A stretch of DNA of 21,757 nt from NCBI GenBank assembly GCA_043778225.1, contig JAYWGM010000055.1:1-21757 (forward strand). Direction: 5' to 3'. Of the stretch, positions 1 to 21,550 are shown piece by piece. A program made the position numbers and the translations under genes. Position 1 is the first letter of the stretch. Each line of letters begins with the position of its first letter. The notes beneath the pieces were generated by a model, which saw only the letters and a program-made list of their open reading frames with translations, was not told where the DNA came from and searched no databases. Source of the stretch: Deinococcales bacterium. GTDB lineage: Bacteria; Deinococcota; Deinococci; Deinococcales; JAAFIG01.

Positions 1-2
1 AA

Positions 3-2100: not shown

Positions 2101-2373
2101 AATTTTCCCATGTTCAGAATATAACTAATTTTTGTTAAAAAAGCCAGGATTAGGTCGGCTATACTCGAGTCCAAATAAATCCAGAAATCTATTTATGAAA
2201 CCTTAGCCCTCGAGTTATTCGTTATTGCCCGCACAATTAACTTTATAACTTCTCGGTTCAGCCAGTTCCGACCCAACACTGACACCACAAATGCGAAATG
2301 GGTTAAGCCCTGTGCGAGTGCTGCATGGTTATATCGAGGATGCCGAATCTCGAGACTGTGCGTTGCTGCTCGA

Positions 2374-3081
2374 GTGGCGAAACCCAACACGCCTCGAGAC
2401 AAAAGCCAAATAAAAACAGGTAAACTGCTTTTTGTGCAAGGTTTAATTATCGCTATTGTGGCAATTTGGGTCGGACTCGACCAAGCCCTCAAATTTTGGA
2501 CAATCGCCAATGTTCCTTTTGGAACGGTTGCCGAATATCAGCCATTCCCAGCTTTTATGTCGCTGGCTCATGTGCGAAACACGGGTGCAGCTTGGAGTTT
2601 ATTCTCGAGTGCTACACCATTTTTGGTGGTGGTGCGGTTGGTGGTTGGGGCAGCCATTCTGGTTTGGTTACTGCGAAAGCCACGCCCTAAACTCGAGTCG
2701 GTGGCTTTTAGTTTTATTGTCGCAGGGGCTTGGGGCAATGCCATAGATGGGCTTCAATACGGCTATGTGGTGGATATGCTGCAAAATCATTGGCTGACGG
2801 CTGTTTACCGAATTATCCAACCCAACCAGATTTTCCCCATTTTTAACCTAGCCGACACGGGCGTGGTTGGTGGAGTGCTGTTGTTGGTGGCGTTAAGTTT
2901 TCTGCCTAAAAAACTTGAGCCAATTGTTGCAACAGAAGCTCAAAACAGTCACCTCGAGAATGCCGAATCGCACAGTCACCTCGAGAATGGCGAAGCGCAA
3001 GGACTTGAGTCAGAATCATCTCAGGTCAAACCCGAATTGACCGTGCCAACACCACTCGAGCCAGTCAAGCATGAGTCTTAG
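2374..3081 (+). CDS. lspA: Lipoprotein signal peptidase II with low-complexity C-terminal extension (start uncertain)
   Basis: Motifs LDQALKFW, NTGAAWS, GAWGNAID, VVDML and IFNLAD, with several hydrophobic segments. Confidence 0.9.
   Translation: MAKPNTPRDKSQIKTGKLLFVQGLIIAIVAIWVGLDQALKFWTIANVPFGTVAEYQPFPAFMSLAHVRNTGAAWSLFSSATPFLVVVRLVVGAAILVWLLRKPRPKLESVAFSFIVAGAWGNAIDGLQYGYVVDMLQNHWLTAVYRIIQPNQIFPIFNLADTGVVGGVLLLVALSFLPKKLEPIVATEAQNSHLENAESHSHLENGEAQGLESESSQVKPELTVPTPLEPVKHES
2945..2989 (+). repeat. In-frame 27-bp tandem duplication in the lspA tail
   Basis: ACAGTCACCTCGAGAATG at 2945 and 2972, encoding NSHLENAES / HSHLENGEA. Confidence 0.85.
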
Positions 3082-3144
3082 ATGACACTTGTTGCATAAA
3101 ATTTTGCACATCGTTGCGCTTTTTCTTGGTGTACAGTCAGAGGC

Positions 3145-5652
3145 ATGAAGTATTTTCCAGTTTTGATTTCCTTGGCAGCCCTCGCCGCTTGTGGCAGCAG
3201 TATTCCAGTTGGGTCGGGCGGACTCGAGAAGTGGTCTGACCCGAAAACTTGGGGCGGGACTGTGCCTGTTGCGGGTGCAAACCTGACCATCCCAGCCGGT
3301 AAACAAGTGCTGCTCGATACATCGGTTAGCCTCGGGGCGCTTGAAATCGCTGGCGAATTGCGTTTTGACAATGCTGACCTCGAGTTACGCGCCAAAAGCA
3401 TCATGGTGCATGGTGGAAAACTACAAATTGGCTCGAGTCTTGCGCCGTTTTCTAAACGCGCTACAATTACTCTGGTTGGTCAGGACACAGGCGGCGATGT
3501 CATGGGCATGGGCGAAAAAGTTTTGGGTGTGATGATGGGCGGTAGTTTAGAACTTTACGGTGCATCCCGAGGCAAGTCTTGGACACGCTTAAATGGTACG
3601 GCTGCGGTGGGTGCAAAAACCCTCAATCTCGAGGCTGGGGCGGGTTGGGCGGTCGGTGATAAAATTGCTCTTGCCAGCACCGATTACAGTCCAGACCAAG
3701 CCGAAGAAGTGGTGATTACCGCCGTAGCTGGCAATACAGTCACGATTGCACCCGCCTTAAAATACAGCCATTTTGGTGAAGCCCAGACCTTTGCTGGAAA
3801 AACCCTTGAGTCTCGAGCCGAAGTGGCGCTCTTAAATCGTAACATTGTCATTCGCGGCGATGAGACCAGCAACACCACAGGTTTTGGTGGTCATGTCATG
3901 GTCATGGACAGCAGCCTTGCCAAGCTCGAGAATGTTGAAATTACTAACATGGGTCAAAAAAATAAGCTCAAGCGCTACCCGATTCATTTTCATATGCAAA
4001 GTATCGGCAGCACTGGTTCGCTCATTAAAAATAGCGTCATTCACAATAATTTTAACCGTTGTGTCACGGTTCATGGCTCGGCTGGTATTCTGCTCGAGAA
4101 CAACGCGGCATACAACACCCTCGGGCATTGCTTTTTTCTCGAGGATGGCAGCGAGACGGGCAACACCTTGCGCGGCAATCTTGGTTTTAGCACCAAACGC
4201 CCCCCCGAAGGACAGCGCTTACTGCCGACCGACAGCGACCCGTCCACCTTTTGGATTACCAACCCCAACAATACCTTCGAGAACAATGTTGCGGCTGGCT
4301 CGGCAACTTTTGGTTTCTGGATTGCCCTGCCCGAAAAAGCCACCGGTCCAAGTGCTACCGATGCCCGTTTTGCGGGTACATTCCCAAGCCGCACCGCCTT
4401 GGGCGTTTTTAAGAACAACTTAGCCCACAGCAACGAAAACACAGGCTTAAATGTGGATGGTGGTCCGGATGTCACCACGCTCGAGCAACGCACCACGTAT
4501 TATGCGGCTCGAGCCAACCCATCTGACGAAAAAAGCGTGATTGTTCCGACTTTGTTTGAAGGTTTCCAAGCCTATAAAAACCGTAACCGTGGGGTCTGGT
4601 TGCGCGGCGAAAAACACACCCTCGAGAATGCGCTGATTGCCGATGGGGCAATTGGGGCAACTTTTGCCAGCCATGAAACTTTTGTGCAAAACAGCGTTTT
4701 TGTCGGTGAAACCGCCAATAAAGGCACACCATCTGATTACGAAAAAAACGGACGGGTCGGCTTAGATGGTCGGACGCTGCCATTTCCTTGGGAAGTCGCC
4801 TTTCCAATTCGTGGTTTTGAATTTTATGATGGCAAAGTTGGCGCTAAAAATGTCACCTTTGTTAATTACCAGCCCAACGCTCAACGCGGCGCAGGTGGCA
4901 CGTCGTATTTGCGCTTTACCGACTTTCATATTGACCCACGCAATGGCGCAGAAGGTCTGAGCTTCCAAAACGCCAACCAAGTCTGGCTCAAATTTGAAAA
5001 GCCCGAGCCAAGCGCCCCAACCGACGATGGCATGGATGGCTATCGCAGCGCCGTGTTTATGGACAAAGATGGCAGTCTCACGGGAACGGCTGACCGCAGC
5101 GTGGTGGTCAATAATCCGTTTTTACTGAATGCCAACTGCACTGCCAAAACTGAATGGAGCGCCAACATCTGCAACAATCCGTATGCACGTTTCCAATTCG
5201 AGAATGTTTCTGGCAACAATGCCGAAATTAGCCCTGTCAGCATCAAGCGGCTCGAGGACAACAACCCAACCCATAAAATGTGGGGAACACCTTCGGACAA
5301 TGCCAACCGCCATTTTGAAACCCGTCTGATTGCCCAAAAGAATTACGATATTAGCCCTGCTGGGGCTTTGCCGCCTCGAGTCCGCCTGCATTTTCGCAAC
5401 CGCAATGTTGGCGACTGGATACGAATTACCCTGCCATGGATGGGTTCAGCCCCGCGCATCTACCGCGATTGGTGGGTGGACAACCGCAATGACCTCGAGC
5501 CAGTGGCGCTTAGCGAACTTGAAGCCTCGAGTGGCGATAAGTACGCACTTGAAGGCGGTAAGCTGTACTTAAAGATGCAAATCAAAGCCGAAGCCAGTTA
5601 TGTCAAGGATTGGGCGGTCTTGGATGTCTGTCAGGCTGACCTTTGTAAATAA
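3145..5652 (+). CDS. G8-domain lipoprotein with parallel beta-helix repeats (CEMIP/TMEM2-like)
   Basis: Signal peptide with lipobox LAAC. G8-like N-terminus (WSDPKTWGGTVP...GGSLELYG). Motifs RAEVALLNRNIVIRG, RYPIHFH, CVTVHGS, GHCFFLEDG and STFWITNPNN, typical of the CEMIP/TMEM2/fibrocystin group. Confidence 0.8.
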   Translation: MKYFPVLISLAALAACGSSIPVGSGGLEKWSDPKTWGGTVPVAGANLTIPAGKQVLLDTSVSLGALEIAGELRFDNADLELRAKSIMVHGGKLQIGSSLAPFSKRATITLVGQDTGGDVMGMGEKVLGVMMGGSLELYGASRGKSWTRLNGTAAVGAKTLNLEAGAGWAVGDKIALASTDYSPDQAEEVVITAVAGNTVTIAPALKYSHFGEAQTFAGKTLESRAEVALLNRNIVIRGDETSNTTGFGGHVMVMDSSLAKLENVEITNMGQKNKLKRYPIHFHMQSIGSTGSLIKNSVIHNNFNRCVTVHGSAGILLENNAAYNTLGHCFFLEDGSETGNTLRGNLGFSTKRPPEGQRLLPTDSDPSTFWITNPNNTFENNVAAGSATFGFWIALPEKATGPSATDARFAGTFPSRTALGVFKNNLAHSNENTGLNVDGGPDVTTLEQRTTYYAARANPSDEKSVIVPTLFEGFQAYKNRNRGVWLRGEKHTLENALIADGAIGATFASHETFVQNSVFVGETANKGTPSDYEKNGRVGLDGRTLPFPWEVAFPIRGFEFYDGKVGAKNVTFVNYQPNAQRGAGGTSYLRFTDFHIDPRNGAEGLSFQNANQVWLKFEKPEPSAPTDDGMDGYRSAVFMDKDGSLTGTADRSVVVNNPFLLNANCTAKTEWSANICNNPYARFQFENVSGNNAEISPVSIKRLEDNNPTHKMWGTPSDNANRHFETRLIAQKNYDISPAGALPPRVRLHFRNRNVGDWIRITLPWMGSAPRIYRDWWVDNRNDLEPVALSELEASSGDKYALEGGKLYLKMQIKAEASYVKDWAVLDVCQADLCK

Positions 5653-5681
5653 TCCCTAGAAATTGCTGTACGATACCAGCC

Positions 5682-6308
5682 ATGCCACGTACCTTAGACA
5701 AAATTCGCCAAGCAAGCGTCGAGGAGTATTTGCGTTTTGAGGAGACTGCTTTAGAACGCCATGAATTTGTGGATGGCAGTATTTTTATGATGGCTGGCGG
5801 AACTGTACAACACGCTCAAATTGCTTTGCGTTTAGCCGCTAAACTCTTAGCAAGCACAGAAAATACCGAATGCGAAGTGGTAACTTCAGATGTGAAATTG
5901 CAAATTGGCAATGTTTATTATTACCCTGACATCATGGTCTCTTGCCAAGAAAACAAAGCCGAACGACGATTTTTTCAAAATCCTTGCAGCATTATCGAAG
6001 TGCTTTCGAGCAGCACAGAACCCGTAGACCGAGGCGAAAAGTTACTGCGCTATCGCACTATTGCTACTTTACAAACGTATATTTTACTGGCACAAGACGC
6101 GATTCGAGCCGAAGTCTATAGGCGTTTACCCGATAACACTTGGCGTTATGAAGTGCTAGAAAAAAACGATACCCTCGAGATACCATGCGCTCATTTTAAG
6201 CAATTACTGAATTCTATTTACAAAGGTGTATTAAGCAACCGAGCCGATTTTGAAGCAGCACTTGCCAGCGCACCAGATGTCCAGCCAGACCCTGACGACC
6301 AAATGTAA
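5682..6308 (+). CDS. Uma2 (DUF820) family PD-(D/E)XK endonuclease
   Basis: Motifs RHEFVDG, MAGGTVQH, YYYPDIMVSC, PCSIIEVLSSST, DRGEK..RY and YILLAQD. Confidence 0.9.
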   Translation: MPRTLDKIRQASVEEYLRFEETALERHEFVDGSIFMMAGGTVQHAQIALRLAAKLLASTENTECEVVTSDVKLQIGNVYYYPDIMVSCQENKAERRFFQNPCSIIEVLSSSTEPVDRGEKLLRYRTIATLQTYILLAQDAIRAEVYRRLPDNTWRYEVLEKNDTLEIPCAHFKQLLNSIYKGVLSNRADFEAALASAPDVQPDPDDQM

Positions 6309-6310
6309 AC

Positions 6311-6501
6311 GAGCAACCAAGTATCGTATGGGACTCGAGCAACCAAGTATCGTATGGGACTCGAGCAACCAAGTATCGTATGGGACTTGAGCAACCAAGT
6401 ATCGTATGGGACTCGAGTAACCAGGCATTGTATGGGACTTGAGACACCAAGCATCGTATGGGACTCGAGACGTTGACTGATGTGGGACTCGAGACTCCCA
6501 C
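6311..6501 (+). repeat. Tandem array of 26-bp units (6 full copies plus 1 degenerate), ending in a small palindrome
   Basis: Unit GAGCAACCAAGTATCGTATGGGACT(C/T) starting at 6311, 6337, 6363, 6389, 6415 and 6441, with a degenerate copy at 6467. Ends GTGGGA-CTCGAGAC-TCCCAC (6482-6501). Confidence 0.95.
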
Positions 6502-6508
6502 CCATCTG

Positions 6509-6587
6509 TGCTATGCTGCCCTTCGGGTGCGAAATTCTCGCGCCATTTTATTGTGCTTGCGAGCGAATCAAATCGCCGCTTTTTTTT
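6509..6587 (+). promoter_or_regulatory. Putative typA extended -10 promoter and structured leader with a terminator-like hairpin
   Basis: TG-C-TATGCT at 6509-6517. Stem GCGAGCGA/TCGCCGC at 6559-6579 followed by T8 (6580-6587), then RBS GAGGT. Confidence 0.4.
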
Positions 6588-6596
6588 GAGGTTGTC

Positions 6597-8384
6597 ATGC
6601 AGGAATTTCGTAATATCGCCATTATTGCCCACGTAGACCACGGTAAAACAACCTTGGTGGATGGGCTACTTAAACAAACGCACACTTTCCGCGATAACCA
6701 GCTGGTTGCCGACCGCGTGATGGACTCCAATGCCCTCGAGCGAGAGCGCGGTATTACCATTTTGGCAAAAAATACCGCCGTTGAGTACCACGGCATTAAA
6801 ATCAATATCATGGATACGCCCGGTCACGCCGATTTCGGTGGCGAAGTCGAACGTGTGCTTGGCATGGTGGATGGCTGCTTATTGTTGGTGGATGCTTCTG
6901 AAGGTCCGATGCCACAAACCCGTTTTGTCCTCAAAAAAGCCCTCGAGCTTGGACTGCACCCAATTGTCGTGATTAACAAAATAGACCGCAAAGACCAGCG
7001 CATCACCGAAGTTGTTAATTTGACCTTCGATTTGATGGCAAGTTTGGATGCCACCGACGAACAACTCGATTTCCCGATTATCTATGCGATTGCTCGAGAG
7101 GGCAAAGCCTTCAAAGATTTGGAGCAACCCAAGGAAGACCTCGACGAATTGCTCGAGTTAATTGTCAAGCACGTTCCACCACCCGCCATCGAAATTGATA
7201 AGCCGTTTCAGATGCTGGTCACCAACCTCGATTATTCCGATTACCTTGGGCGTATCGCCATTGGGCGGGTGCGGCGCGGTAAGGTCAAGCGCAACGAATA
7301 CGTGATGGTGATGCACAAAGACGGCACGCAATCGAAAGCCAAAGTGTCCCAAGTCTTTACCCACATGGGTCTAAATCGCATTGATGTTGAACAGGTTTTT
7401 GCTGGAGATGTCGTGGCGATTGCTGGACTCGAGGATGTTGGTGTTGGCGAAACCGTCGCCGATTTTGCTGACCCCGAAGCCTTGCCAATTTTAACCGTCG
7501 ATGAGCCAACCGTTTCGATGACCTTTGGTCCAAACACCAGCCCATTTGCTGGTAGAGAAGGCAAGTACGTCACCACCCGTCATATCCGTGACCGCTTATT
7601 CAAAGAAGCCATGACCAATGTGGCACTGCGCGTTGAAGAGGACAGCACCGACGAGTACAAAGTCTCTGGGCGTGGCGAGTTGCACCTGAGCATTTTAATC
7701 GAAACCATGCGCCGTGAAGGTTACGAAATGCAGGTCTCCACACCACAAGTGATTACTCGAGAAATTGATGGCAAAGTTCACGAACCTTACGAGCATTTGG
7801 TGATTGATGTGCCAGAAGGCAAAATGGGCGGCGTGATGGAAACCCTAGGCAGTCGTCGCGGCGAAATGCTGAATATGGACAACCAAAACGGACGGATGCG
7901 GCTCGAGTACAAAATTCCAGCCAGAAGCCTGTTTGGTTTCCGCACCCAGTTTTTAAGCATGACCCAAGGCGAAGGCATCATGAACCACGTCTTTGATGGT
8001 TATGCCCCAATGGCTGGCGAAATCAAGACCCGTCAGAATGGGTCTTTGGTCGCCATGGAAGCCGGACAGACCTTTCCATACGCGATTTGGAAACTCGAGG
8101 ATCGCGGTAAGTTCTTTATCGAACCGGGTATCGAAGTCTATATTGGTATGATTGTTGGTTCTAACAGCAGCGCCAAGGATTTGAACGTCAATGTCTGTAA
8201 ATCTAAAAAGCTGACCAATATGCGAACCAGTGGCGCGGACGATGCCACGACCCTGACCCCAGTTTCACCAATGAGTCTCGAGGAAGCCCTTGAGTACATT
8301 GCTGATGACGAATTGGTCGAGGTCACACCAAAAAGCATTCGTTTGCGTAAACGGGTACTCGAGCCAAACCAACGCAAAATCTAA
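6597..8384 (+). CDS. typA: Translational GTPase TypA/BipA
   Basis: [64 protein letters not shown] and [19 protein letters not shown] at 6597 follows GAGGT. Confidence 0.97.
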
Positions 8385-8392
8385 GTTCAAAA

Positions 8393-8414
8393 AGGCGAGC
8401 CAATTGGCTCGCCT
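8393..8414. terminator. Perfect 22-bp palindrome after typA (terminator or REP-like element)
   Basis: AGGCGAGCCAATTGGCTCGCCT equals its own reverse complement. The A-run precedes it, so the U-tract falls on the minus strand. Confidence 0.55.
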
Positions 8415-8463
8415 ATGGCTCGAGTACCCAAAAAGATTTTTTTTAGGTACTCTGGTAGGTATC

Positions 8464-9219
8464 ATGACCAAGACCATAGACCTCAATGCCGATGCTGGAG
8501 AATCTTATGGCACTTGGCAACTTGGCGCGGATGCGGCGCTTTTCCCATACTTAACCAGTGTCAATCTGGCTTGTGGTTTCCACGCTGGCGACCCAAGTAC
8601 CATCCTGCGTAGCCTCGAGTTGGCTGCCAAACACCAGCTTGCGGTTGGGGCGCACCCAAGTTTTCCAGATCTGGTTGGTTTTGGGCGGCGCGAAATGACC
8701 CTCGAGCCAGACCAGATTTATAGCGATGTGCTGTACCAAATTGCGGCTTTAGGTGGCATGGCAAATACCCAAGGCTTGCAGTTGCACCATGTCAAAGCCC
8801 ATGGCGCACTCTACAACCAAGCGGCTCGAGCAATAACCACGGCTCGAGCCATTGCCAAAGCGGTACGGGATTTTGGTTCTGGTGTGCCTTTGGTCGGTTT
8901 GCCTAACTCAAAACTCGAGCAGGCTGCTCTAGAATTTGGCTTACCATTTATTGCCGAAGCCTTTCCAGAACGTGGCTACCTTGAAACTGGTGAACTTGCG
9001 CCGCGCAGTCTGCTTGGCTCGAGTATTCACGACCCTGATGTGGCAGCCACAAGGGCAGTCCAGATGGTGCTTGGGCAAATCCAGACCCTCGAAGGCACAA
9101 GGCTGGCGCAGCAAGCCCAAACGCTGTGTATTCATGGCGATAACCCTAATGCGGTACAGATTGCCAAGGCTGTTCGGGCGGCGCTCGAGGTGGCTGGTAT
9201 CGAGCTTAGGGCGTACTGA
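8464..9219 (+). CDS. pxpA: 5-oxoprolinase subunit A (LamB/YcsF family)
   Basis: IDLNADAGESYG, NLACGFHAGDP, GAHPSFPDLVGFGRR, HVKAHGALYN and TLCIHGDNP. ATG at 8464. Confidence 0.93.
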   Translation: MTKTIDLNADAGESYGTWQLGADAALFPYLTSVNLACGFHAGDPSTILRSLELAAKHQLAVGAHPSFPDLVGFGRREMTLEPDQIYSDVLYQIAALGGMANTQGLQLHHVKAHGALYNQAARAITTARAIAKAVRDFGSGVPLVGLPNSKLEQAALEFGLPFIAEAFPERGYLETGELAPRSLLGSSIHDPDVAATRAVQMVLGQIQTLEGTRLAQQAQTLCIHGDNPNAVQIAKAVRAALEVAGIELRAY

Positions 9220-10721: not shown

Positions 10722-10826
10722 TTTTTATTTCCCAAACTGACCCCAAAACCTTGTAGAATCTCGAGCATTCCCCAAAGTATCTTGCAGTTTCTAGCTCGAG
10801 ATACGCTTTGCCTAATAGGAGGCACA

Positions 10827-12707: not shown

Positions 12708-13856
12708 TTCGGCTTGTAAAATGTCTTGCACTGTCTCACGTCGGCGCAAGACCACCCAAGCATCGTCCTCGAGTAGCACTTCGGCAGGGCGAGGGCGGGT
12801 CAGGTAATTGCTTGCCATGCTCGAGCCATATGCGCCAGCTTGGCTGATGCAAATCAGGTCGCCGACCTCTGGCTCGGCAATTTTGACATCGCGCCCCAAA
12901 ATATCGCCAGATTCGCAAGCTGCTCCTGCAATATCAAGCGTTACGGTGGCTCGAGTGGCGCTCAGGTTTTCGATTGGATGCACTGCGCCGTACAACATTG
13001 GGCGCAATAACTCGGACATTCCAGAATCCACCACCGCAAAAGTTCGAGCAGTTTTTTTCTTCTCGAGAACGGTGGTCAATAGCACCCCACTTTCGGACAC
13101 CAGCCAACGTCCGGGTTCAATCCAGAGTTCAGACGCGCCAAAAGCATCAGCAGCTTGGTGTCCAAGTTTGGCTAATGGCTCGAGGTCAAAGCCTAAACCA
13201 AAGCCGCCGCCCATATCAAAAACTTGCCTCGAGCCAATCTGTTTGGCAAGCCCCGCCATCCGCTCGAGTGCCAGCAGATAATCGTTTGGGTCTTCGATGC
13301 TGCTGCCGATGTGCATTTGTAGCCCAACCACTTCTAAACCAGCTTTTTCGGCGTTCTGTACGGCTACAGGCACATCCTCGAGACTGACCCCAAACTTGCT
13401 GCTGGCGTTGCCCGTCGCCAAATGGTCGTGGGTCGAAACCTTTAAGCCCGGATTGACCCGAATCAGCACTTGGGCGTTGGGCGCGTACTTGGCGGCTCGG
13501 GTGGCTTCATCGGTATTGTCGAGAATGATGTATGCTCCGACTTCTTTGGCTTTTGTATAATCAGCATTGAGTTTGCCGGGTCCGTTCATGACCATTTGCC
13601 TACCCGTCGCCCCAGCTAAAATTGCCCGCTCGAGTTCGCCGCCAGACACGGCTTCAAAGCCCACGCCCAGCGCGTTTAGGCGTTTGAGAATCCCAAGGTT
13701 GGGGTTGGCTTTGATTGCATAAAAAATTTTGGCTGAACCAAATGCCACTTTTAGCCGCTCGAGTTGTGTCTGAATGACTTGCCAATCGTAAGCATAGAGT
13801 GGTGTGCCATAAGTTTGGGCTGCCTCGAGTAACAAAGTTTTGAAAGCTGAACGCAT
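12684..13856 (-). CDS. lysA: Diaminopimelate decarboxylase (fold type III PLP decarboxylase)
   Basis: YGTPLYAYD, YAIKANPN (PLP lysine), SKFG, HIGS, EPGR, ACESGD and GAYGSSMASNY. Overlaps the accC 3' end by 24 bp. Confidence 0.85.
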   Translation of the reverse strand: MRSAFKTLLLEAAQTYGTPLYAYDWQVIQTQLERLKVAFGSAKIFYAIKANPNLGILKRLNALGVGFEAVSGGELERAILAGATGRQMVMNGPGKLNADYTKAKEVGAYIILDNTDEATRAAKYAPNAQVLIRVNPGLKVSTHDHLATGNASSKFGVSLEDVPVAVQNAEKAGLEVVGLQMHIGSSIEDPNDYLLALERMAGLAKQIGSRQVFDMGGGFGLGFDLEPLAKLGHQAADAFGASELWIEPGRWLVSESGVLLTTVLEKKKTARTFAVVDSGMSELLRPMLYGAVHPIENLSATRATVTLDIAGAACESGDILGRDVKIAEPEVGDLICISQAGAYGSSMASNYLTRPRPAEVLLEDDAWVVLRRRETVQDILQAELHLHTGF

Positions 13857-13862
13857 GGCTCG

Positions 13863-13870
13863 AGTATACT
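13863..13870. promoter_or_regulatory. Palindromic bidirectional -10 element for leaderless lysA and ALDH transcripts
   Basis: AGTATACT reads TATACT on both strands, each exactly 6 nt before an ATG (13877 on +, 13856 on -). Confidence 0.7.
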
Positions 13871-13876
13871 GCTACG

Positions 13877-15340
13877 ATGCAAAGTAAACTTTTTATTGGC
13901 GGTTCGTGGGTCGCAGCGACTGGCGGCACACTCGAGGTCGTCAACCCCAGCAACGAAGAAATTCTGAGTTATGCACCCAATGCCAGCCCCGCCGACGTAG
14001 ATACAGCCGTAGAAGCGGCTCGAGTGGCTTTTAAGACTTGGAAGCGCACCACAGGCGCAGAACGAGCCGTATTTTTAAGTGCCATTGCCCAAGGGGTGCG
14101 AAATCGCAAAGAAGCACTGGCGCGACTCGAGACCCAACAAAACGGTAAGCCTCTGCCCGAAGCGCTGTGGGACATGGATGATGTGGCGGCTTGTTTTGAC
14201 TACTACGCCCAACTTGCTATAGACCTTGACTCGAGGCTCGAGACCGAAATTATTTTGCCAAATCCAGACTTTAGCAGTTTGGCACGGCTCGAGCCAGTCG
14301 GGGTGGTCGGGCAGATTATTCCGTGGAATTACCCACTTTTAATGCTGGCGTGGAAAGTTGCCCCAGCATTATCAGCAGGCTGTTGCAGTGTGCTTAAACC
14401 ATCCGAACTGACCCCTTTTACCGCCCTCGAGCTTGGGGAAATTGCACTCGAGGCTGGGTTGCCATCTGGAGTGCTGAACATTGTGAGTGGTGGGCGCGAA
14501 ACAGGCGCAGCCCTAGCCGACCATCAGGGTATAGATAAACTGGCATTTACAGGCAGTGTCGCCACTGGGCGCAAGGTCATGCAGGCAGCGACCACAGGCA
14601 TCAAAAACATCACGCTCGAGTTGGGTGGCAAATCGCCAATACTGGTTTTTAACGACAGCGATTTAGACCAAGCCATTGAGTGGATTCTGTTTGGGATTTT
14701 TTGGAATAAAGGCGAGGTTTGTAGCGCCACCAGTCGGTTGTTGGTGCAGTCCGAAATTGCGCCGGCTTTATGGAGTCGCCTCAAGCTCGAGTGCGAAAAA
14801 ATAACCATCGGCGACCCGCTCGAGGCTGGAGTCTTGCTTGGACCACTGGTCTCGAGTGGACAATACCAAAAAGTGCTTTCGTTCCTCGAAGTCGCCAAAG
14901 CCGAAGGATTAACATTGCTGACTGGCGGCAAGCGCCCAAGCCATTTAGCCAAAGGGTTTTATCTCGAGCCAACCGTTTTTACCGATGTCCCAAGCAGCAG
15001 CCGCCTCTGGACAGAAGAAATTTTTGGACCGGTGCTGGTTGCCCAGACCTTCACCACCGAAGCCCAAGCCCTCGAGTTGGCAAATTCTAGCAACTTTGGT
15101 TTGGCAGCAGCTGTACTCTCCAAAGATTTAACCCGTTGCCAACGGGTGGCTCGAGAACTCGAGGCGGGTATTGTCTGGATTAATTGCTCGCAACCGACTT
15201 TTTGTGAAGCCCCATGGGGTGGCTATAAACAGAGCGGTATTGGGCGCGAACTTGGGCATTGGGGTTTAGACAATTACCTCGAGACCAAGCAAATTACCAG
15301 TTACAACACCGATAAGCCATGGGGTTGGTACATTAAATAG
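13877..15340 (+). CDS. Aldehyde dehydrogenase, betaine/aminoaldehyde dehydrogenase (ALDH10-like)
   Basis: [32 protein letters not shown], catalytic [16 protein letters not shown] and C-terminal PWGWY. Confidence 0.88.
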
Positions 15341-16196
15341 CTCGTGCCTCAAATCTTTTTGAGGGCAGTACAAATTCATCTTGGGCAGCAATCAACTGAA
15401 TTTCTCGAGTGCCAAGCTGGTGTGTCAGTTCGAGCAAGTTATAGAGCGCACTGGCGGCATTCTCGAGTGCCAGTTTTAGACTGCCCGTCTTTAAGTAATG
15501 CCCTAAAAACAGAGCCGCAATACAATCGCCAGTGCCATTGCGCGGTGGGTCAAGTAAAATTTTAGGTGTCTCGAGCAACCACGCGCCCTCACTCGAGACC
15601 GCCAAGACTTCGATGCTGTCTTGGCGTAGCTCGAGGCTTGTGACCAGCACCAGACCATTTGGGCGCATCTTGGAGCGCAACGCCAGAGTCGCATTCAGTG
15701 CATCCTCAAGGGTCTGAATCTGCAAGCCAGTCAAAAGCTCGAGTTCAAATTGATTGGGGGTCAATATATCGGCTTGTGGCACAACATTTTGGCGGATAAG
15801 GTCTGGCAATTCTGGGCGCACAAAAATGCCACGCCCGACATCGCCCATGACTGGATCGCAACAAAAAAGCGCCTTGGGGTTGGCGGCGCGTACCTTTGCG
15901 ACTGCCTCGAGAATCGCTTGAGCCGTGTCTGGTGCGCCCATATAGCCAGACAGCACCGCCGTACATTCGGGCAGCACGCCTCGGTCTTCGATGCCTTGAA
16001 TCAGGGCTTTGGTCTGTTCGGCTGGAAAAACTTGCCCAGTCCACGCGCCATACCCAGTGTGGTTACTAAATTGCACGGTATGGACTGCCCAGACTTCAAA
16101 ACCAAGGCGCTGCAACGGGAAAACAGCCGCCGCGTTGCCTGCATGACCGTAGCTCACCCAGCTTTGAATCGAGAGGATATTTTGTGGTTTTTGCAT
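15333..16196 (-). CDS. pdxY: Pyridoxal kinase
   Basis: [52 protein letters not shown] and NGTGD. Confidence 0.93.
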
Positions 16197-16199
16197 GAC

Positions 16200-16673
16200 C
16201 TAAGCCACCATCGGTTTACTGGTTTTGCCACTCAGGCTTCTGAACCTCGAGACCGCATTGACATCCTCGGCTAACTCGAGCATATCGAGGTAAATATCAT
16301 CGGCATAGTATGCCAGTGCGGTTAATCCTTCGGCAAAAACCTCATAACGCAGTGCCGACATCGGTAATTCGACGGTCAGAGTTACATCCTCGTCTTCGTC
16401 GAGGACAAATTTGGCTAAGTTCATTTCACGGTTAAAGTGCAGCATCGCTTCCATGGTATGGACTCGGGTTTTCTCGAGTTCTGGGGCGGGTACAAACGGC
16501 GAGATGGTCATGTAGAGCCATGCTTCGGTTAAGCGCATATAAATTGTAAAAAAACCATTTTCACCCTTAAAGCCAGTCCGCCAGACACCATCGCCAATGG
16601 TTTCAAAGCTCCAACCGTATTCTCCAAAAAACTTTTCAACTGTTTGCGGTTTGACCTCGGTCACATTTTGCAT
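16200..16673 (-). CDS. YbjN-domain protein (type III secretion chaperone-like fold)
   Basis: 157 aa and acidic. The pattern MLHFNREMNLAKFVLDEDEDVTLTVELP resembles the YbjN family. Ends 3 bp before pdxY. Confidence 0.65.
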   Translation of the reverse strand: MQNVTEVKPQTVEKFFGEYGWSFETIGDGVWRTGFKGENGFFTIYMRLTEAWLYMTISPFVPAPELEKTRVHTMEAMLHFNREMNLAKFVLDEDEDVTLTVELPMSALRYEVFAEGLTALAYYADDIYLDMLELAEDVNAVSRFRSLSGKTSKPMVA

Positions 16674-16696
16674 TCTACCCCTTTATGGTGAAATAA

Positions 16697-16741
16697 CTTT
16701 TGACCTTTTGACCTTTTGACCTTTTGACTTTTTGACCTTTT
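16697..16741. repeat. Intergenic octamer tandem repeat (C/T)TTTTGAC x5
   Basis: CTTTTGAC x4, TTTTTGAC, then partial CTTTT, starting at the aminotransferase stop codon. Confidence 0.95.
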
Positions 16742-17814
16742 CACCCTAGCAACCCTGCCAAGCGTTTCATGCCTTCATCTATCTCCTCAAAAGTCAGGGC
16801 GCAAAAAGGCAAACGCAAAAATTGGTTACCATCTTCTGGATTGACAAAAAAACCACGTCCGTCGGTTAAAGCCAGACCAGCACCTGTGGCTCGAGCCATC
16901 AATTCGGTGATACTCGAGCCACTTGGCAAATTGACTGACAAGAAAAAACCTCCATCTGGCTCGAGAAAATCGGTCAGCCCATTGGCACGCAGCGCGGCTG
17001 CCATACGCTCTAAACGCGGCGCGTATAAAGCACGTAAGCGCTCGAGTTGTGGTTCAAGATGCCCACGCTTGATAAATTCGAAAACTGTGGCTTGCCCGAG
17101 AAACGCCCCAGAAATATAAGTGTCGTTGGCAGCTTTGGCAAGTTTGGCTAACCAAGTCTTATCGCCAACCAACGTCCCAACCCGCACCCCCGGCGAAATT
17201 TGTTTGGTATACGAACTCATTTGCATAACCTTACTTGGGTTGAGTTCAAATAAACTTGGCAGACTTGTGCCACGGTAACGCAAAGGGCGGTAGGGTGCAT
17301 CCTCGAGAATCATAAAATTGTGGCTTTGCGCCAATTCCAACACCGCATGGCGTTTCTCGAGGCTCATAGTTGAGCCACTGGGATTTTGGAAATCGGCAAT
17401 GAGATACGCCAGTGTTGGCTTATGGGTTTCGACCGCTTTTTTGAACGCCTCGAGATTGACCCCATCTGGCTCGAGCGGTACTGCCACGATATTGACCCCG
17501 TGACGTTTTAACAAGGTGATGGTGCGGTCATAGGTTGGTGCTTCGACCAACACAGTAGCACCCGGCTCGAGAATCAGCCCCAGTAAATCCACAAACGACA
17601 AACTGCCATTGCCGATTAAAACTTGGTCGGTTGTTACACCGTTTTGGGCAGCCAACAATTCACGCAACGGATTAAACCCATAGCCAGTGCCATAACGCAT
17701 GGTTTCGAGTGCCAGTTTTGGGTCAGCCATCACGGCAGCCGCAGATTCACGCACCAACTCGAGTGGATAGGATTCGTCGGCTGGAACACCACGGGTTAAT
17801 TGAATCGTTTGCAT
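16741..17814 (-). CDS. PLP-dependent class I/II aminotransferase (LysN/MocR-AT-like, no HTH domain)
   Basis: VEAPTYDR, FQNPSG, ILEDAPY, SSYTKQISPGVRVG (PLP lysine) and FLRLPF. Confidence 0.88.
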   Translation of the reverse strand: MQTIQLTRGVPADESYPLELVRESAAAVMADPKLALETMRYGTGYGFNPLRELLAAQNGVTTDQVLIGNGSLSFVDLLGLILEPGATVLVEAPTYDRTITLLKRHGVNIVAVPLEPDGVNLEAFKKAVETHKPTLAYLIADFQNPSGSTMSLEKRHAVLELAQSHNFMILEDAPYRPLRYRGTSLPSLFELNPSKVMQMSSYTKQISPGVRVGTLVGDKTWLAKLAKAANDTYISGAFLGQATVFEFIKRGHLEPQLERLRALYAPRLERMAAALRANGLTDFLEPDGGFFLSVNLPSGSSITELMARATGAGLALTDGRGFFVNPEDGNQFLRLPFCALTFEEIDEGMKRLAGLLG

Positions 17815-17874
17815 AACCAGATTCTACCAAGAGAGTTGGACAACATAAAAGTAACTCGAGTAGACTGGTCACTT

Positions 17875-18858
17875 ATGGAATACAAATTGTTGGGTCGGAC
17901 GGGTTTTAACATCTCGAGCATCGGTTTTGGTGCATGGGCAATTGGTGGCACGTGGGGCGAAGTCCTCGACACCGACAGCATGAGCGCCCTGCATAAAGCC
18001 TTGGATATGGGCGTAAATTTTATAGACACCGCCGATGTTTACGGCGATGGTCGCTCCGAGCGTTTAATTGCCCAACTTCGAGCCGAGCGCAGCGAACCCT
18101 TTTTTGTTGCCACCAAGGCTGGGCGCAGACTGCCTAAACAAACAGTCGAGGGTTACAGCCAAGAAAACCTTCATGCTTGGGTCAAACGCAGTTTAGAAAA
18201 TCTCAAGCTCGAGACCATAGACCTGTTGCAATTGCACTGCCCACCAACCGATGTCTACCGCGCAGACGATGTTTTTCGTATTCTCGAGGAGATGAAGTCT
18301 TTGGGTATGATTCGGCACTATGGAATCAGCGTCGAAACGGTCGAAGAAGCCATGCTGGGTATTCAGTACGAAGGTGTGCAGAGCGTACAAATTATTTTTA
18401 ATTTGCTGCGTCTTAAACCCAGCGATGTGTTTTTTGCCGAAAGCATTAAACGCCAAGTTGGTATTCTGGCTCGAGTGCCGCTTGCCAGTGGCTTATTGAC
18501 TGGTAAAATGACGAAGGCTTCAAGTTTTGCTGCCGACGACCACCGTGCTTTTAATCGCAATGGCGAGGCATTCGATAAGGGCGAGACCTTTTCGGGTGTG
18601 CCGTACAATGTCGGCTTAGAGGCAGTCGAACGCCTGCGTGGGTTTGTCCCCAATGGCTCGAGTCTGACCCAATTTGCCTTGCGTTGGATTGGGATGTTCC
18701 CAGCCGTAACGTGCAGCATTCCGGGCGCAAAAAATGCCGCCCAAGCCGAGCAGAACTTTGCCGCCGCCGACCTGCCACCACTCGAGCCAGATGTGATGCA
18801 AGCCACTCGAGCGATTTACGACGATTTAATCCGCCAACACGTGCATGGCAGTTGGTGA
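17875..18858 (+). CDS. Aldo/keto reductase
   Basis: LGRTG..ISSIGFGAWAIGG, FIDTADVYGDGRSE, VATKAG, IDLLQLH and PLASGLLTGK. Likely start is ATG at 17875. Confidence 0.92.
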   Translation: MEYKLLGRTGFNISSIGFGAWAIGGTWGEVLDTDSMSALHKALDMGVNFIDTADVYGDGRSERLIAQLRAERSEPFFVATKAGRRLPKQTVEGYSQENLHAWVKRSLENLKLETIDLLQLHCPPTDVYRADDVFRILEEMKSLGMIRHYGISVETVEEAMLGIQYEGVQSVQIIFNLLRLKPSDVFFAESIKRQVGILARVPLASGLLTGKMTKASSFAADDHRAFNRNGEAFDKGETFSGVPYNVGLEAVERLRGFVPNGSSLTQFALRWIGMFPAVTCSIPGAKNAAQAEQNFAAADLPPLEPDVMQATRAIYDDLIRQHVHGSW

Positions 18859-18869
18859 TAAAATCTTTT

Positions 18870-19244
18870 ATGCCTAAAAAAGACATACCAAAAGACCCGA
18901 TTCGAGAACAACGAATTGATTATGAAATCGTGGTGGATGCCTACGACGAAATCGAACGGTCAATGGGCTGGTACTATTATCTTGATGAGAAACTGGTCTA
19001 TCCATTCTCGGCAAAATGTATCCTCGAGCGTCTTACCTCGCCTTTAGGAATTGGTGAACAAGTCAAAGTGCTTGGAATGCCAAGCGAAGAAGATTGCCAA
19101 GACGAGATGCTGGTTTTGGTCAAGTACAAAACAAAGAAATTAGCTGTTCCACTGGCGCAACTCGAGTGTTTATCCGAAGATGAAGATACCTTAGAAGCCG
19201 TAGCGGACTGGCATTATTGGGTTGGACGTGGTTACCAGTTTTAA
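18870..19244 (+). CDS. CcbP-family calcium-binding protein
   Basis: Acidic 124-aa protein with RIDYEIVVDAYD.E..MGWYYYL, PF.AKC, LAVPLAQL and AVADWHYWV, characteristic of the family. ATG at 18870. Confidence 0.75.
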   Translation: MPKKDIPKDPIREQRIDYEIVVDAYDEIERSMGWYYYLDEKLVYPFSAKCILERLTSPLGIGEQVKVLGMPSEEDCQDEMLVLVKYKTKKLAVPLAQLECLSEDEDTLEAVADWHYWVGRGYQF

Positions 19245-20224
19245 GCTAAATTCGAGTCGGTAAACGAGGCTGCATTAAACTCGAGAATCTGCGAACAGCG
19301 CTTTTGTAGTTGCACAAATGTTGTGAGCAGTTCAGGTGGTTGTTCGATTTGTACCATGCACCCCAAACCAAGCAGCAGGGCTGCAAATCTCTCGAGGTTG
19401 CTGCGCTGACACTGCATTCGTGTGCCAGCCTTTTCGGCGACCAATTCGGTCGCCCAAAGAGAAAGTTTGCCGCGCAGTACATCTGGCGGAAACTCGAGCC
19501 AAACACTGATTTGATATGTTTTTGGGGTATCTATAATGGTGCGGTGTAAAAAAGTAAGCGCATCAAAATTGGCTGGTGGAATAAAAGTCTGTTCAAGTAA
19601 CTCGAGTTGCTCGATGCGATCCAAGCGAAACGAGCGTATGTCATGGCGTAATTCGCACCAACCAACCGCGTACCAACGTCCTCCCAAATGCACCACTTGG
19701 TAAATCTGAACAGGGCGTACCGTCGGAGTTTTAGATTGACCAAGGTACGATAACCGTACCACTCGAGTTTGCCGCACCGCTTGTAAAAGTTGTTGTAATA
19801 CGGCTGTGTCGGTGTCAACTACCCAAGGAGCAATATCCATTTGCACCGCTTGCTCGAGGATGGTCATTTGTTGGCGCATGGTATCGGGCAAAACCCGCAG
19901 TAATTTGGCATGAACTGTTTCGGCGGCTGGGGTCAGGGTTTGTAAACCAAGCAACTGCAAAGCTCGCAAGCCAAAAGTCAGCGCCAAGGCTTCATCGTTG
20001 CTAAACATTAAAGGGGGAAGCCGAAAGCCAGCCTGAAGACGGTACGAGCCACCCACACCACGCTTACCTTGAATTGGGATACCCAAGTCTTGTAAACGCA
20101 AAATATAGCGCTGCACACTGCGCGGACTGACCTCAAGCCGACGTGCCAATTCGGCACAGGTGATGGTTTCTCGAGCTTGTAATAACTCGAGTACCGCCAG
20201 AACTCGCATCGAAGGGTCATACAT
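19241..20224 (-). CDS. HTH-WYL-WCX transcriptional regulator (YafY/PafBC/DriD-like)
   Basis: N-terminal wHTH ELARRLEVSPRSVQRYI, then GVGGSYRL and LPPLMFS; WYL domain RWYAVGWCELRHDIRSFRLDRI. Likely start is ATG at 20224. Confidence 0.92.
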   Translation of the reverse strand: MYDPSMRVLAVLELLQARETITCAELARRLEVSPRSVQRYILRLQDLGIPIQGKRGVGGSYRLQAGFRLPPLMFSNDEALALTFGLRALQLLGLQTLTPAAETVHAKLLRVLPDTMRQQMTILEQAVQMDIAPWVVDTDTAVLQQLLQAVRQTRVVRLSYLGQSKTPTVRPVQIYQVVHLGGRWYAVGWCELRHDIRSFRLDRIEQLELLEQTFIPPANFDALTFLHRTIIDTPKTYQISVWLEFPPDVLRGKLSLWATELVAEKAGTRMQCQRSNLERFAALLLGLGCMVQIEQPPELLTTFVQLQKRCSQILEFNAASFTDSNLA

Positions 20225-20246
20225 ATGACTACAGTATGCCCGAAAA

Positions 20247-20281
20247 ATACGACAAGTCCTGACGTAAATTGGCATTATGCT
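20247..20281 (+). promoter_or_regulatory. Putative WYL-regulator operator and dinB promoter
   Basis: Imperfect inverted repeat TACGACA-AGTCC-TGACGTA (20248-20266). The right half TGACGT lies 10 nt before TATGCT (20276-20281). Confidence 0.6.
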
Positions 20282-20300
20282 CTGTTCGGAGGTAACACCC

Positions 20301-20780
20301 ATGAATACGCCCACAGACCAACAACCAATGCTCTCGCCAACTCAGTACCTTGCCCATTGGCAAGGACACCGCAGCCTCACTCGCCGTATCATCGAAGCCT
20401 TTCCAGACGATCAATTATTTGGTTTTTCTGCCACCGAACCAATGCGACCCTTTGGCGCAATGGCTTGGGAACTACAACTGATTAGCGAGATGACCATGCG
20501 TGGTTTAACATCCGAAAACTGGGAAAGCCCAGATTGGAATAGACCACCCGATAAAACTATTTTATTGAGCGCATGGGATGCCCTGACCGAAGAAATCAAT
20601 CAGCAATTTACAAGCATTCCACTCGAGCAGTACCACAAAAATTACACCTTGGAATGGGGCGAAATGACAGGCTTGACTGTGTTGCTTTACAACATAGACA
20701 ACGAAATCCATCACCGCGGACAAGGCTATGTTTACCTACGGTTATTGGGCATTGAACCGCCTTTTTTCCACGAGCGTTAA
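20301..20780 (+). CDS. DinB/YfiT family protein (not DNA polymerase IV)
   Basis: HRSLTRRIIEAFPDD, MRPFGAM and NEIHHRGQGYVYLRLLGIEPP. RBS GGAGG at 20288. Confidence 0.88.
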   Translation: MNTPTDQQPMLSPTQYLAHWQGHRSLTRRIIEAFPDDQLFGFSATEPMRPFGAMAWELQLISEMTMRGLTSENWESPDWNRPPDKTILLSAWDALTEEINQQFTSIPLEQYHKNYTLEWGEMTGLTVLLYNIDNEIHHRGQGYVYLRLLGIEPPFFHER

Positions 20781-20788
20781 ACCTATTT

Positions 20789-20818
20789 GGCTCGAGTCAA
20801 TACGATTTGACTCGAGCC
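20789..20818. terminator. Perfect 12-bp hairpin between the convergent dinB and GNAT genes
   Basis: GGCTCGAGTCAA-TACGAT-TTGACTCGAGCC. U-tracts are weak. Confidence 0.5.
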
Positions 20819-21396
20819 TCGAGCCGCGCTTTTACCATTTGCCATTCGGATTGAAGCACACTAAAAATAATTTTGTCACGCACCAAACCATCAGCCCGAA
20901 TCGCAGATTGTCGCAGCATACCTTCTTTGGTTGCACCAAGTTTATTGATGCTGCCAATCGAACGTAAATTTTCGGCATCAATCGTAAATTGAACTCGGTT
21001 TGCACCCAATACTTCAAAAGCTCGAGTCAGCAGCAGTAACTTTGATTCAGCATTGGCTTGGCTGCCCCAGAAAGCTGGCATCAGTAACGTTCCAAGCTCG
21101 AGCGCCGCGTTTTTGGCTTGGACATGAAAAAGTAAAACCCGACCACAAATTGCACCTGTAGCCAACATCCGCACTGCCCAATGAACACTTTCAGAACGGC
21201 TTATTTGCTCCTCGAGATGGGTTTGAAAAGCCGCCACCGAAGTAAAATTTAAGTAGCCTGTTCCCGTAAAAGTCAGTGCTTGGGCATCAAACCATTCAAA
21301 CATTGGAGCAGCATGCAAAGCTGGCTCAAGCGGCTCGAGTCGAATGTGTTTTCCCTCGAGCAGCACTGGCTCGAGCCAAATTTCTTGGATGGTCAT
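20797..21396 (-). CDS. GNAT (RimJ/RimL-like) N-acetyltransferase
   Basis: LEGKHIRLEPL, LELGT...FWGS.ANAESKLLLLTRAFE, RVQFTIDAENLRS and LGATKEGMLR. Confidence 0.88.
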   Translation of the reverse strand: MTIQEIWLEPVLLEGKHIRLEPLEPALHAAPMFEWFDAQALTFTGTGYLNFTSVAAFQTHLEEQISRSESVHWAVRMLATGAICGRVLLFHVQAKNAALELGTLLMPAFWGSQANAESKLLLLTRAFEVLGANRVQFTIDAENLRSIGSINKLGATKEGMLRQSAIRADGLVRDKIIFSVLQSEWQMVKARLEARVKSY

Positions 21397-21415
21397 GATT
21401 TTATTCTGCCACAGA

Positions 21416-21550
21416 TTATACCGTCTTTATATAGATACTCTGTATTTCGCAGGTTTGAACCACCAACACAGGACGACGAAACCCTGGACTCGAGCCAATT
21501 GGGTTCAAACCAAGATTTGCCCACCAAATCTCGCCACGTTCAATTACCAT
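21416..21550 (-). pseudogene. mazF: Truncated PemK/MazF family toxin
   Basis: MVIERGEIWWANLG.NPIGSSPGFRRPVLVVQ is the typical MazF N-terminus. The ORF stops after 44 codons and the GNAT start follows 19 nt later. Confidence 0.8.

Follow-up and report, generated by a model that had tools for sequence, protein, structure and literature searches.

What keeps the palindrome CTCGAG at one copy per 127 bp through ordinary genes and the spacers between them? This question is raised by a 21,757-base stretch of DNA from a Deinococcales bacterium, which we call the window and which is contig C55 of assembly G000 (4,029,277 bp, 107 contigs of up to 154 kb, 48.7% GC). We report the statistics of the word, its spread across genomes, the turnover of its sites and its effect on proteins, all of which were observed directly. 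As to the cause, we tentatively favour, with somewhat less than even confidence, a genome-wide sequence-specific bias of repair or recombination, that is, a molecular drive of the biased-gene-conversion type that keeps CTCGAG hyper-abundant.

Frame-independent iteration of CTCGAG in the genome

The window contains 153 copies of CTCGAG, compared with a mean of 2.9 and a maximum of 9 in 100 dinucleotide-preserving shuffles, none of which reached 153. All but one of these copies (152) lie between 2164 and 21494, where 17 ordinary housekeeping genes and their spacers, on both strands, carry one site per 127 bp. An earlier interpretation made without database searches (the sequence-only reading) had counted about 150 sites, roughly one per 130 bp and far above expectation, in all codon phases and on both strands, and our counts bear this out. 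According to our own open reading frame (ORF) map, the sites within genes divide into 89, 26 and 22 in codon phases 0, 1 and 2, with 89 in genes on the + strand and 48 in genes on the - strand. A further 16 sites lie outside called genes or straddle their boundaries. Among them are six that had been named as intergenic (2164, 2209, 8419, 10760, 13859 and 20791); for a seventh, 17855, which lies after a TTG at 17800 and before the first ATG at 17875, intergenic status is plausible but not settled. The typA/bipA gene (6588..8384, + strand) carries 10 sites. Eight of its 10 Leu-Glu pairs are encoded as CTC GAG, and the two remaining sites (7093 and 7756) are in phase 1 and make use of the Arg codon CGA, exactly as had been described.

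Across G000 there are 24,877 copies (6.17/kb), which account for 3.7% of all bases and exceed the zero-order expectation 26.7 times. CTCGAG is the most frequent hexamer of the assembly, the next non-overlapping hexamer having 5,347 copies, and it is present at 4.0-10.6/kb on every one of the 107 contigs; hence the pattern is not confined to this locus. Under Markov models of orders 1, 2, 3 and 4, the ratio of observed to expected counts (O/E) was 47.5, 15.1, 3.6 and 1.16, respectively. The last value is uninformative because the sub-words of CTCGAG are themselves saturated by the motif (68% of TCGA words and 89% of CTCGA words in G000 sit inside CTCGAG), and the maximal-order Markov expectation was rejected as a null model for this reason.

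The sequence surrounding the word in G000 is near random (each base at 0.17-0.31 at positions -6 to -1 and +1 to +6), and in a comparison of CTC and GAG at spacings of 0-12 the pair was enriched only when contiguous. The iterated unit is therefore the bare hexamer and not a longer repeat. Other palindromic hexamers are avoided to an extreme degree: 31 of 64 occur in G000 at no more than 0.05 times expectation (GGGCCC, AGGCCT and GACGTC with one copy each and GGCGCC with three), and AGCGCT is 2.2-fold enriched. In samples of other genomes, 27 of the 64 fell below 0.1 in G157, which resembles G000 in this respect, and four each in G158 and G042, which do not.

Coding and non-coding DNA carry the word at the same density. 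Using our own rough ORF calls (3,366 genes, 87% of G000), we counted 6.17 copies per kb of genes and 6.13 per kb of non-coding DNA, the latter with a GC content of only 45%. The 3,111 non-coding copies compare with 100 expected from composition (31-fold). These results confirm CTCGAG in G000 as a frame-independent, genome-wide iterated palindrome resembling the highly iterated palindrome 1 (HIP1) of cyanobacteria, GCGATCGC, as the sequence-only reading had proposed. In genes, 12,976, 4,345 and 4,452 of the 21,773 sites are in phases 0, 1 and 2, so that 60% are in the Leu-Glu phase. Shuffles that keep the amino acids and the codon usage of each gene retained 2,269-2,375 of these sites (about 11%, a 9.4-fold excess), and shuffles of whole codons retained 934-1,035 (five shuffles of each kind); the earlier statement that codon bias is insufficient thus holds. 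Peptide contexts that synonymously permit CTCGAG are occupied by it in 69%, 56% and 42% of cases in phases 0, 1 and 2. The word encodes 69% of Leu-Glu pairs, with CTC making up 18% of Leu codons and GAG 37.5% of Glu codons.

A trivial cause, such as codon or dipeptide usage, a dispersed repeat or miniature inverted-repeat transposable element, or an assembly or library artefact, would be in keeping with the predominance of the Leu-Glu phase, and codon usage does explain much of the smaller excess in some GC-rich relatives (1.8 times the synonymous shuffle in G025, 0.7 times in G022). However, the coding and non-coding excesses in G000 and the random flanks speak against it, and the 123 close doublets of sites comprise 122 different sequences. 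Moreover, the motif was found at 4.3-6.8/kb in each of the 18 genomes that belong with G000 to GTDB family f1. This family consists, with G000, of 19 genomes in five genera, all of them metagenome-assembled; the assemblies are separate, and one (G013) is a single 5.1-Mb contig with the motif at family density. Codon bias, a repeat family and an artefact are excluded, and we give a trivial cause practically no chance.

The effect of the word extends to the amino acid sequence. Leu-Glu tops the 400 dipeptides of G000, with 18,806 occurrences against 8,119 expected (2.32-fold), compared with an O/E of 0.97 for Glu-Leu and a Leu-Glu baseline of 1.05-1.28 in motif-free relatives. In 72 ortholog pairs of G000 and G158, the Leu-Glu counts were 364 for G000 and 192 for G158 (98 shared), and those for Glu-Leu 153 and 136. 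CTCGAG encodes 200 of the 266 Leu-Glu pairs present only in G000, and G158 mostly has LD, VE, IE or LN at these places. Orthologs in G020 (105 Leu-Glu pairs in G000 versus 47) and in G022 (222 versus 171) differ in the same direction. Since the excess in orthologs is accompanied by replacements, the pressure for CTCGAG has changed amino acids and has acted beyond codon choice. The motif also distorts the codon, dipeptide and k-mer statistics that are used in binning, gene calling and phylogenetics.

Site turnover and the forces acting on the word

In seven same-genus genomes at about 78% nucleotide identity, the motif was kept in 301 of 464 site-genome pairs (65%), compared with 784 of 2,855 (27.5%) for control hexamers of the same composition. 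Where a site was not shared, its counterpart was one mismatch away in 21% of cases (48% for controls) and three mismatches away in 37% (14% for controls), as if the one-off state were short-lived. Four or more genomes could be aligned at 68 of the window sites. Of these, 24 were present in all and seven only in G000; one position was CTCGAG in all other aligned genomes and missing only from G000, giving seven apparent gains and one loss. High conservation together with scarce one-mismatch counterparts looks like attractor-like dynamics. On a longer scale, 23 typA orthologs (G020, G021, G041 and G182 omitted) share one position, alignment column 1854, across all five f1 genera; the other sites turn over, and many of them face words three to five mismatches away. 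The gain and loss of sites that the sequence-only reading had proposed to follow in ortholog alignments thus takes the form of sites kept above control hexamers and turning over between genera. In non-coding DNA, words one transition from CTCGAG occur at 1.3-1.95 times and words one transversion away at 0.32-0.85 times the frequency given by composition, the commonest being the C-to-T products CTTGAG/CTCAAG (1.95 times) and TTCGAG/CTCGAA (1.60 times).

The gaps between sites in G000 have a mean of 161 bp and a coefficient of variation of 0.998 and are near-exponentially distributed, with codon periodicity only. Short gaps, of at most 20 bp, account for 4.0% genome-wide, where 9.2% are expected, and for 10.3% in non-coding DNA. 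The deficit therefore reflects coding constraint, and short-range repulsion or interference between sites was rejected. Around gene ends the density is flat (5.7-8.4/kb); a role in terminators was also rejected, as the density increases only mildly, to 7.3-8.4/kb, in the 60 bp next to stop codons. Flat density, near-exponential spacing and a single typA position common to five genera give no sign of position-specific function. Two particular spacings stood out. A spacing of exactly 6 never occurs in G000, because it would make the avoided word GAGCTC, of which there are only 24 copies genome-wide. At a spacing of 7, doublets (CTCGAGNCTCGAG) number 123, in 122 different sequences, versus 30-53 for spacings of 8-11.

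Regions poor in the motif are of two kinds. The tRNA genes contain six copies in 5,286 bp, where 32.6 would be found at the genome rate; aragorn detected 68 tRNAs in G000 (one of undetermined type), and four of the six CTCGAG-bearing genes stand in a 3-kb tRNA cluster (G000:C19:9937-12769). The second kind is AT-rich DNA, which accounts for most of the 25 gaps of at least 1.4 kb. In 2-kb windows of G000 the density climbs with local GC content, from 0.85/kb below 36% GC to 7.2/kb at 52-56% GC. Even the former value is about nine times that given by composition, and windows of 36-40% GC, at 2.7/kb, reach about 21 times; one methyltransferase gene of 38% GC has 5.1 copies/kb. Constraint thus resists the motif, and imported DNA is filled gradually. 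In practice, imported DNA can be recognised sensitively in these genomes by its motif density.

Several results are predicted by a genome-wide pressure of mutation or conversion that purifying selection opposes, and are not predicted by position-specific function: genes and non-coding DNA carry CTCGAG equally densely, its sites are Poisson-spaced, positions turn over between genera, permissive contexts are saturated, proteins have been changed, tRNA genes resist the motif and imported DNA is filled gradually. We infer that its cause is a bias of conversion or repair rather than selection at each site. Under such a bias, whenever CTCGAG on one strand or allele meets a near-cognate word on the other, the outcome would favour CTCGAG. 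Near-cognate words would be drawn into CTCGAG, existing sites would resist loss, and purifying selection would check the drive only at tightly constrained sequence. With its random flanks, and with enrichment confined to the contiguous word, this perfect palindrome of 6 bp bears the signature of a dimeric recogniser of the restriction-modification type. The putative recogniser would be a dimeric protein of this kind, either an orphan methyltransferase or an enzyme whose nicks feed into mismatch repair. The sequence-only reading had invoked a dedicated process that creates or keeps the sites. That part fits the conservation of sites, the scarcity of one-mismatch counterparts and the seven gains against one loss; the particular agent that it named is unsupported, as described in the next section.

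Some of these observations would also be obtained if an abundant protein bound to CTCGAG lowered the local mutation rate, so that sites decayed about 27 times more slowly and arose neutrally. Shielding of this kind would account for well-conserved sites with Poisson spacing, for a density that is the same in and outside genes, and for one-off words at roughly neutral levels. It implies slow filling, yet windows of 36-40% GC and the 38% GC methyltransferase gene are already loaded with the motif, which therefore seems to accumulate faster than composition ameliorates. The one-mismatch counterparts, scarce at 21% versus 48%, likewise point to active conversion, and we regard mutational shielding as very improbable.

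Selection for a chromosome function that uses many sites would act differently from a conversion bias. Nucleoid organisation, mismatch repair that uses the word to discriminate strands or to place nicks, or the marking of self-DNA would each be served by sites that are conserved 2.4 times better than control hexamers and that are maintained at similar density in 19 of 19 f1 genomes. The density is also near that of a 4-bp word (about 3.9/kb), and GATC, at 4-bp-word density, serves Dam-directed repair in E. coli. For HIP1, Xu et al. 2018 (PMC5861425) argue for selection. However, with some 25,000 sites the benefit of each would be minute, yet proteins have been altered; the Poisson-like spacing lacks the regularity of a distance-limited function, and positions are not kept between genera. 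In addition, MutH was found in none of 12 genomes searched, and G158 and many genera manage without the motif. Such selection is, in our judgement, unlikely.

Spread across Deinococcota and the search for an agent

A phylum survey, in which CTCGAG was counted in 364 Deinococcota genomes, supplied the distribution that the sequence-only reading had called for: the motif is present in 19 of 19 f1 genomes and is patchy elsewhere. In family f3, counts are high in G156 (16,253 sites in 1.9 Mb; at 8.6/kb the highest density), G157 (24,536 in 3.5 Mb) and G042 (13,562 in 3.8 Mb), and G158, labelled as belonging to the genus of G156 and G157, has just 683 sites in 2.3 Mb (0.3/kb). Densities of about 2-3.5/kb were found in genera g13, g26 and g27 (family f5) and in part of family f2. 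In genus g9 the density, about 0.9/kb, equals that of the GAGCTC control, and the 111 genomes of genus g7 have 26-1,372 copies each.

Samples from seven of these genomes were compared with zero-order expectation and with synonymous shuffles. In 108 kb of G157, the density was 7.0/kb, the O/E 27.6 and the excess over the shuffle 8.9-fold, with a Leu-Glu O/E of 2.29. Weaker forms, at 3.5 times the synonymous shuffle, occur in G042 (200 kb; 3.5/kb, O/E 10.1, Leu-Glu 1.8-2.0) and in G030 (100 kb; 2.5/kb, O/E 7.4, Leu-Glu 1.45), both of them members of other genera with higher GC content. G025 (100 kb) gave 2.9/kb, an O/E of 8.5, 1.8 times the shuffle and a Leu-Glu O/E of 1.46. The corresponding values were 0.33/kb, 1.3, 1.2 times and 1.28 for G158 (200 kb), 0.95/kb, 2.8, 0.7 times and 1.15 for G022 (100 kb), and 0.06/kb, 0.2, 0.4 times and 1.05 for G020 (100 kb); G022 and G020 avoid CTCGAG. 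No alternate HIP was found among the hexamers of the 100-200 kb samples of G158, G020 and G022.

In a tree of TypA (a single gene, rooted at the midpoint; the rows for G020, G021, G041 and G182, where a wrong ORF produced a false clade, were disregarded), family f1 forms one clade (100/100) with f3 as its sister group (99/99). In f3, G158 branches as the sister of the pair G157 and G156 (95/88), and G042 stands among low-density genomes. The patchy occurrence of the motif on this tree therefore requires several losses or several gains. A recent loss in G158 was rejected, as this genome has 64-69% DNA identity to G157 and no clear fossil of Leu-Glu enrichment, its ratio of 1.28 being close to the 1.05-1.15 of other genomes without the motif. 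The patchiness among sister lineages suggests that the determinant is gained or lost as a unit. Such all-or-none contrasts between sisters (G157 and G156 at 7-8.6/kb versus G158 at 0.3/kb, and G042 versus its neighbours) are well suited to phylogenetic profiling for the gene.

The search for an agent was made with chosen Pfam families only. Six methyltransferase families were searched across the f1 genera and three other high-density genomes, four of the families in all five f1 genera and MT-A70 in three. G000 is rich in matches (eight Eco57I-type, six N6_N4, six C5, eight N6_Mtase and four Dam-like, some genes matching two families). Among C5 enzymes (PF00145), one is common only to G000, G006 (80% identity) and G157 (60%), and none was found in the f1 genome G010, which is 91% complete. 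N6_N4 enzymes (PF01555) were not found in the single-contig G013. Eco57I-type enzymes (PF07669) are present in all five f1 genera at a mutual identity of 25-41%, with 41% even within a genus, and N6_Mtase (PF02384) yielded no ortholog in common. MT-A70 (PF05063) was found only in G013 among G000, G013, G010, G042 and G157. A Dam-like enzyme (PF02086) was considered as a universal agent and rejected; it is 71-77% identical among G011, G013 and G157 and absent from G000 by tblastn. This phage-type enzyme (L121 in G011, L122 in G013, L115/L150 in G157), which connects two f1 genera with a genome of another family, is as conserved as TypA (73%).

XhoI-family systems for CTCGAG do circulate in Deinococcota. 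The XhoI nuclease (PF04555) was found in three of 22 genomes searched outside f1, namely G021 (L026), G033 (L027) and G031 (L025); the copy in G031 is broken by stop codons. The methyltransferases linked to these nucleases are of two unrelated types, a 583-aa protein with Eco57I and TaqI_C domains in G031 and a 340-aa protein with N6_N4 relatives in G021 and G033. Used as probes, they detected just weak relatives in G000 (27-33% identity, some over short stretches). The orphan CTCGAG methyltransferase that the sequence-only reading had named first, and whose co-occurrence with the motif it had proposed to check, was not found, the six families holding no orthologous enzyme shared by the f1 genera.

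Several results weigh against the repair or recombination bias that we favour. PF04555 is missing from all 19 f1 genomes, and no methyltransferase ortholog common to the f1 genera was found in PF00145, PF01555, PF07669, PF02384, PF02086 or PF05063. Vsr (PF03852) was found in none of six f1 genomes searched, only G042 having one, and MutH (PF02976) in none of 12 genomes, six of them f1. G156, with the highest density, has no match in five methyltransferase families, but this genome is 58% complete. The higher conservation of sites is also predicted by selection. One-mismatch words are not drained genome-wide, and very strong conversion might have depleted them. Finally, the count of gains and losses comes from 68 sites in one window and from parsimony.

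These enzyme results bear in particular on a special case of the favoured bias, in which an orphan methyltransferase marks CTCGAG or its TCGA core and methyl-directed or very-short-patch repair fixes the mutations that create sites. This is Elhai's model for HIPs, and each alternate cyanobacterial HIP is reported to come with a methyltransferase of its specificity (Elhai 2015, PMC4390886). The richness of the genomes in methyltransferases, the C5 enzyme common to G000, G006 and G157 and the prevalence of C-to-T products among non-coding one-off words would agree with it. The C-to-T excess, however, is also expected from plain transition bias acting on 3,111 sites, and the lack of an ortholog across f1, with G010 devoid of C5 and G013 of N6_N4 enzymes, speaks against it, as do the counts for Vsr and MutH. 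In G042, the methyltransferases are all on one contig, and the only small one is a C5 enzyme with the Vsr gene immediately downstream (L179, G042:C11:82462-86457). The surroundings of this Dcm/Vsr-like pair have one CTCGAG in 4 kb and 62% GC, versus 66.7% in the 200-kb sample, and the pair looks recently acquired. We consider the orphan methyltransferase quite unlikely. We see a possible, though doubtful, role for machinery other than XhoI-type, Dcm/Vsr and MutH systems or lineage-conserved methyltransferases, which would drive the palindrome to near-saturation, with enough force to rewrite proteins, and whose determinant would be switched on and off between sister lineages. If this is true, it would represent a novel type of gene-conversion drive with sequence specificity, possibly resting on a principle shared with HIP1.

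The spread of a word by recombination may also follow uptake of DNA, if a competence machinery prefers fragments that bear CTCGAG. A search for ComEC (PF03772) detected it in 11 of 12 genomes, among them six of six from f1, and motif-poor imported islands fit such a drive as well. But ComEC is also present in the motif-free G158 and G020 and is therefore non-discriminating. The known uptake signals, the uptake signal sequence (USS) and the DNA uptake sequence (DUS), are asymmetric 9-12-mers with extended flanks that occur about once per kb, unlike CTCGAG, whose 6 bp are symmetric, stand in random sequence and recur six times per kb. The USS reportedly occurs in genes in all frames and shapes the proteome. 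On balance, an uptake-sequence drive appears distinctly improbable.

Two further candidates were discarded. Uma2 (PF05685) is expanded in G000 (34 matches), the f1 genomes as a whole (6-40) and G019 (33), and among 14 named controls it occurs only in Synechococcus, Thermus and Deinococcus. It was rejected as the agent because genus g9 has 10-16 matches without an excess of the motif and G042 has none at 3.5/kb. Motif density inside methyltransferase genes was rejected as a filter for long residency, most of these genes having 3-8/kb, which does not discriminate.

Known iterated words and other features of the window

The closest known cases are cyanobacterial HIP1 and the alternate HIPs, above all GGCGCC of Calothrix PCC 7103. 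They share with CTCGAG that a short GC-rich palindrome is over-represented tens-fold, in genes in all frames and in intergenic DNA, without being part of a longer repeat. In both cases the conservation of sites exceeds background, certain related lineages have few or no copies, and the cause is unexplained. The present word differs in its phylum, in its sequence and in its density, 6.2/kb versus the roughly 0.5-2.5/kb given for HIPs by Elhai 2015 (PMC4390886). It also differs in that we found no cognate or conserved methyltransferase, where Elhai 2015 finds one for each HIP, and in that its effect on amino acid sequence is measured here. In Xu, Lawrence and Durand 2018 (PMC5861425), HIP1 sites show a periodicity of 10-90 kb and a conservation above background that is read as selection, and a role in nucleoid organisation is proposed. 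For decades HIP1 has lacked an explanation, with some authors arguing for biased repair (Elhai 2015) and others for selection on chromosome structure (Xu et al. 2018). A denser second case in an unrelated phylum indicates that the phenomenon is not peculiar to cyanobacteria. No published report of CTCGAG hyper-abundance in Deinococcota was found in the full-text literature searched, which excluded subscription journals and REBASE. The present work adds a negative search for the agent, a phylum-wide map with sister contrasts and ortholog-based proof of amino acid change.

Other known systems resemble CTCGAG in part. The USS of Pasteurellaceae and the DUS of Neisseriaceae are words spread throughout the genome by drive and not through the function of single sites, which lie inside genes with effects on peptides and are rare in imported DNA. 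CTCGAG is like them in these respects, its spread by drive being the reading favoured here, and differs in the form and density already described. Restriction-modification systems of the XhoI/PaeR7I type recognise the same word, and in G021, G033 and G031 XhoI nucleases with adjacent methyltransferases are present; the nuclease is missing from f1. Restriction sites are normally avoided, and G020, with CTCGAG at 0.4 times its shuffle, conforms to this. In E. coli, Dcm/Vsr acts at CCWGG, where repair restores the methylation site from the deamination product and thereby skews word frequencies to a small extent. The f1 genomes differ in the absence of Vsr from the six searched, and the words that deamination would produce are not depleted. 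Chi, finally, is likewise an over-represented short word that marks resident DNA. Unlike the palindromic CTCGAG, it is asymmetric, strand-skewed and dependent on RecBCD/AddAB; RecC (PF04257) was found in none of 12 genomes in a search that did not cover AddAB.

Besides TypA, the window genes have Pfam matches to an lspA-type peptidase, a G8/beta-helix protein, Uma2, LamB/YcsF, a carboxyltransferase, biotin carrier and carboxylase, a decarboxylase, an aldehyde dehydrogenase and others. The Uma2-family PD-(D/E)XK protein (5682..6308, + strand) is one of the 34 Uma2 matches in G000. A scan of the window with Rfam gave zero matches. At the contig edge, positions 1..2163 form an AT-rich islet of 35.8% GC with a single CTCGAG (1023), a motif-poor contrast to the remainder of the window. 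The islet encodes a 420-aa C5 DNA methyltransferase (838-2100, - strand; PF00145, E 4e-55), to which no C5 enzyme in the other genomes compared is related at 38% identity or above, and a 5'-open ORF (3-854, + strand) whose sole match, to response regulators, is weak. The islet is probably imported DNA, the remnant of a restriction-modification system.

The opposite end of the window holds a dispersed repeat of about 100 bp (21657..21757), which is separate from the motif phenomenon. It has 87-100% matches in many contigs of G000, several of which reach a contig end or stop no more than 100 bases from it (C12, C60, C71, C36 and others). Same-genus genomes also contain matches, and the repeat seems to break assemblies.

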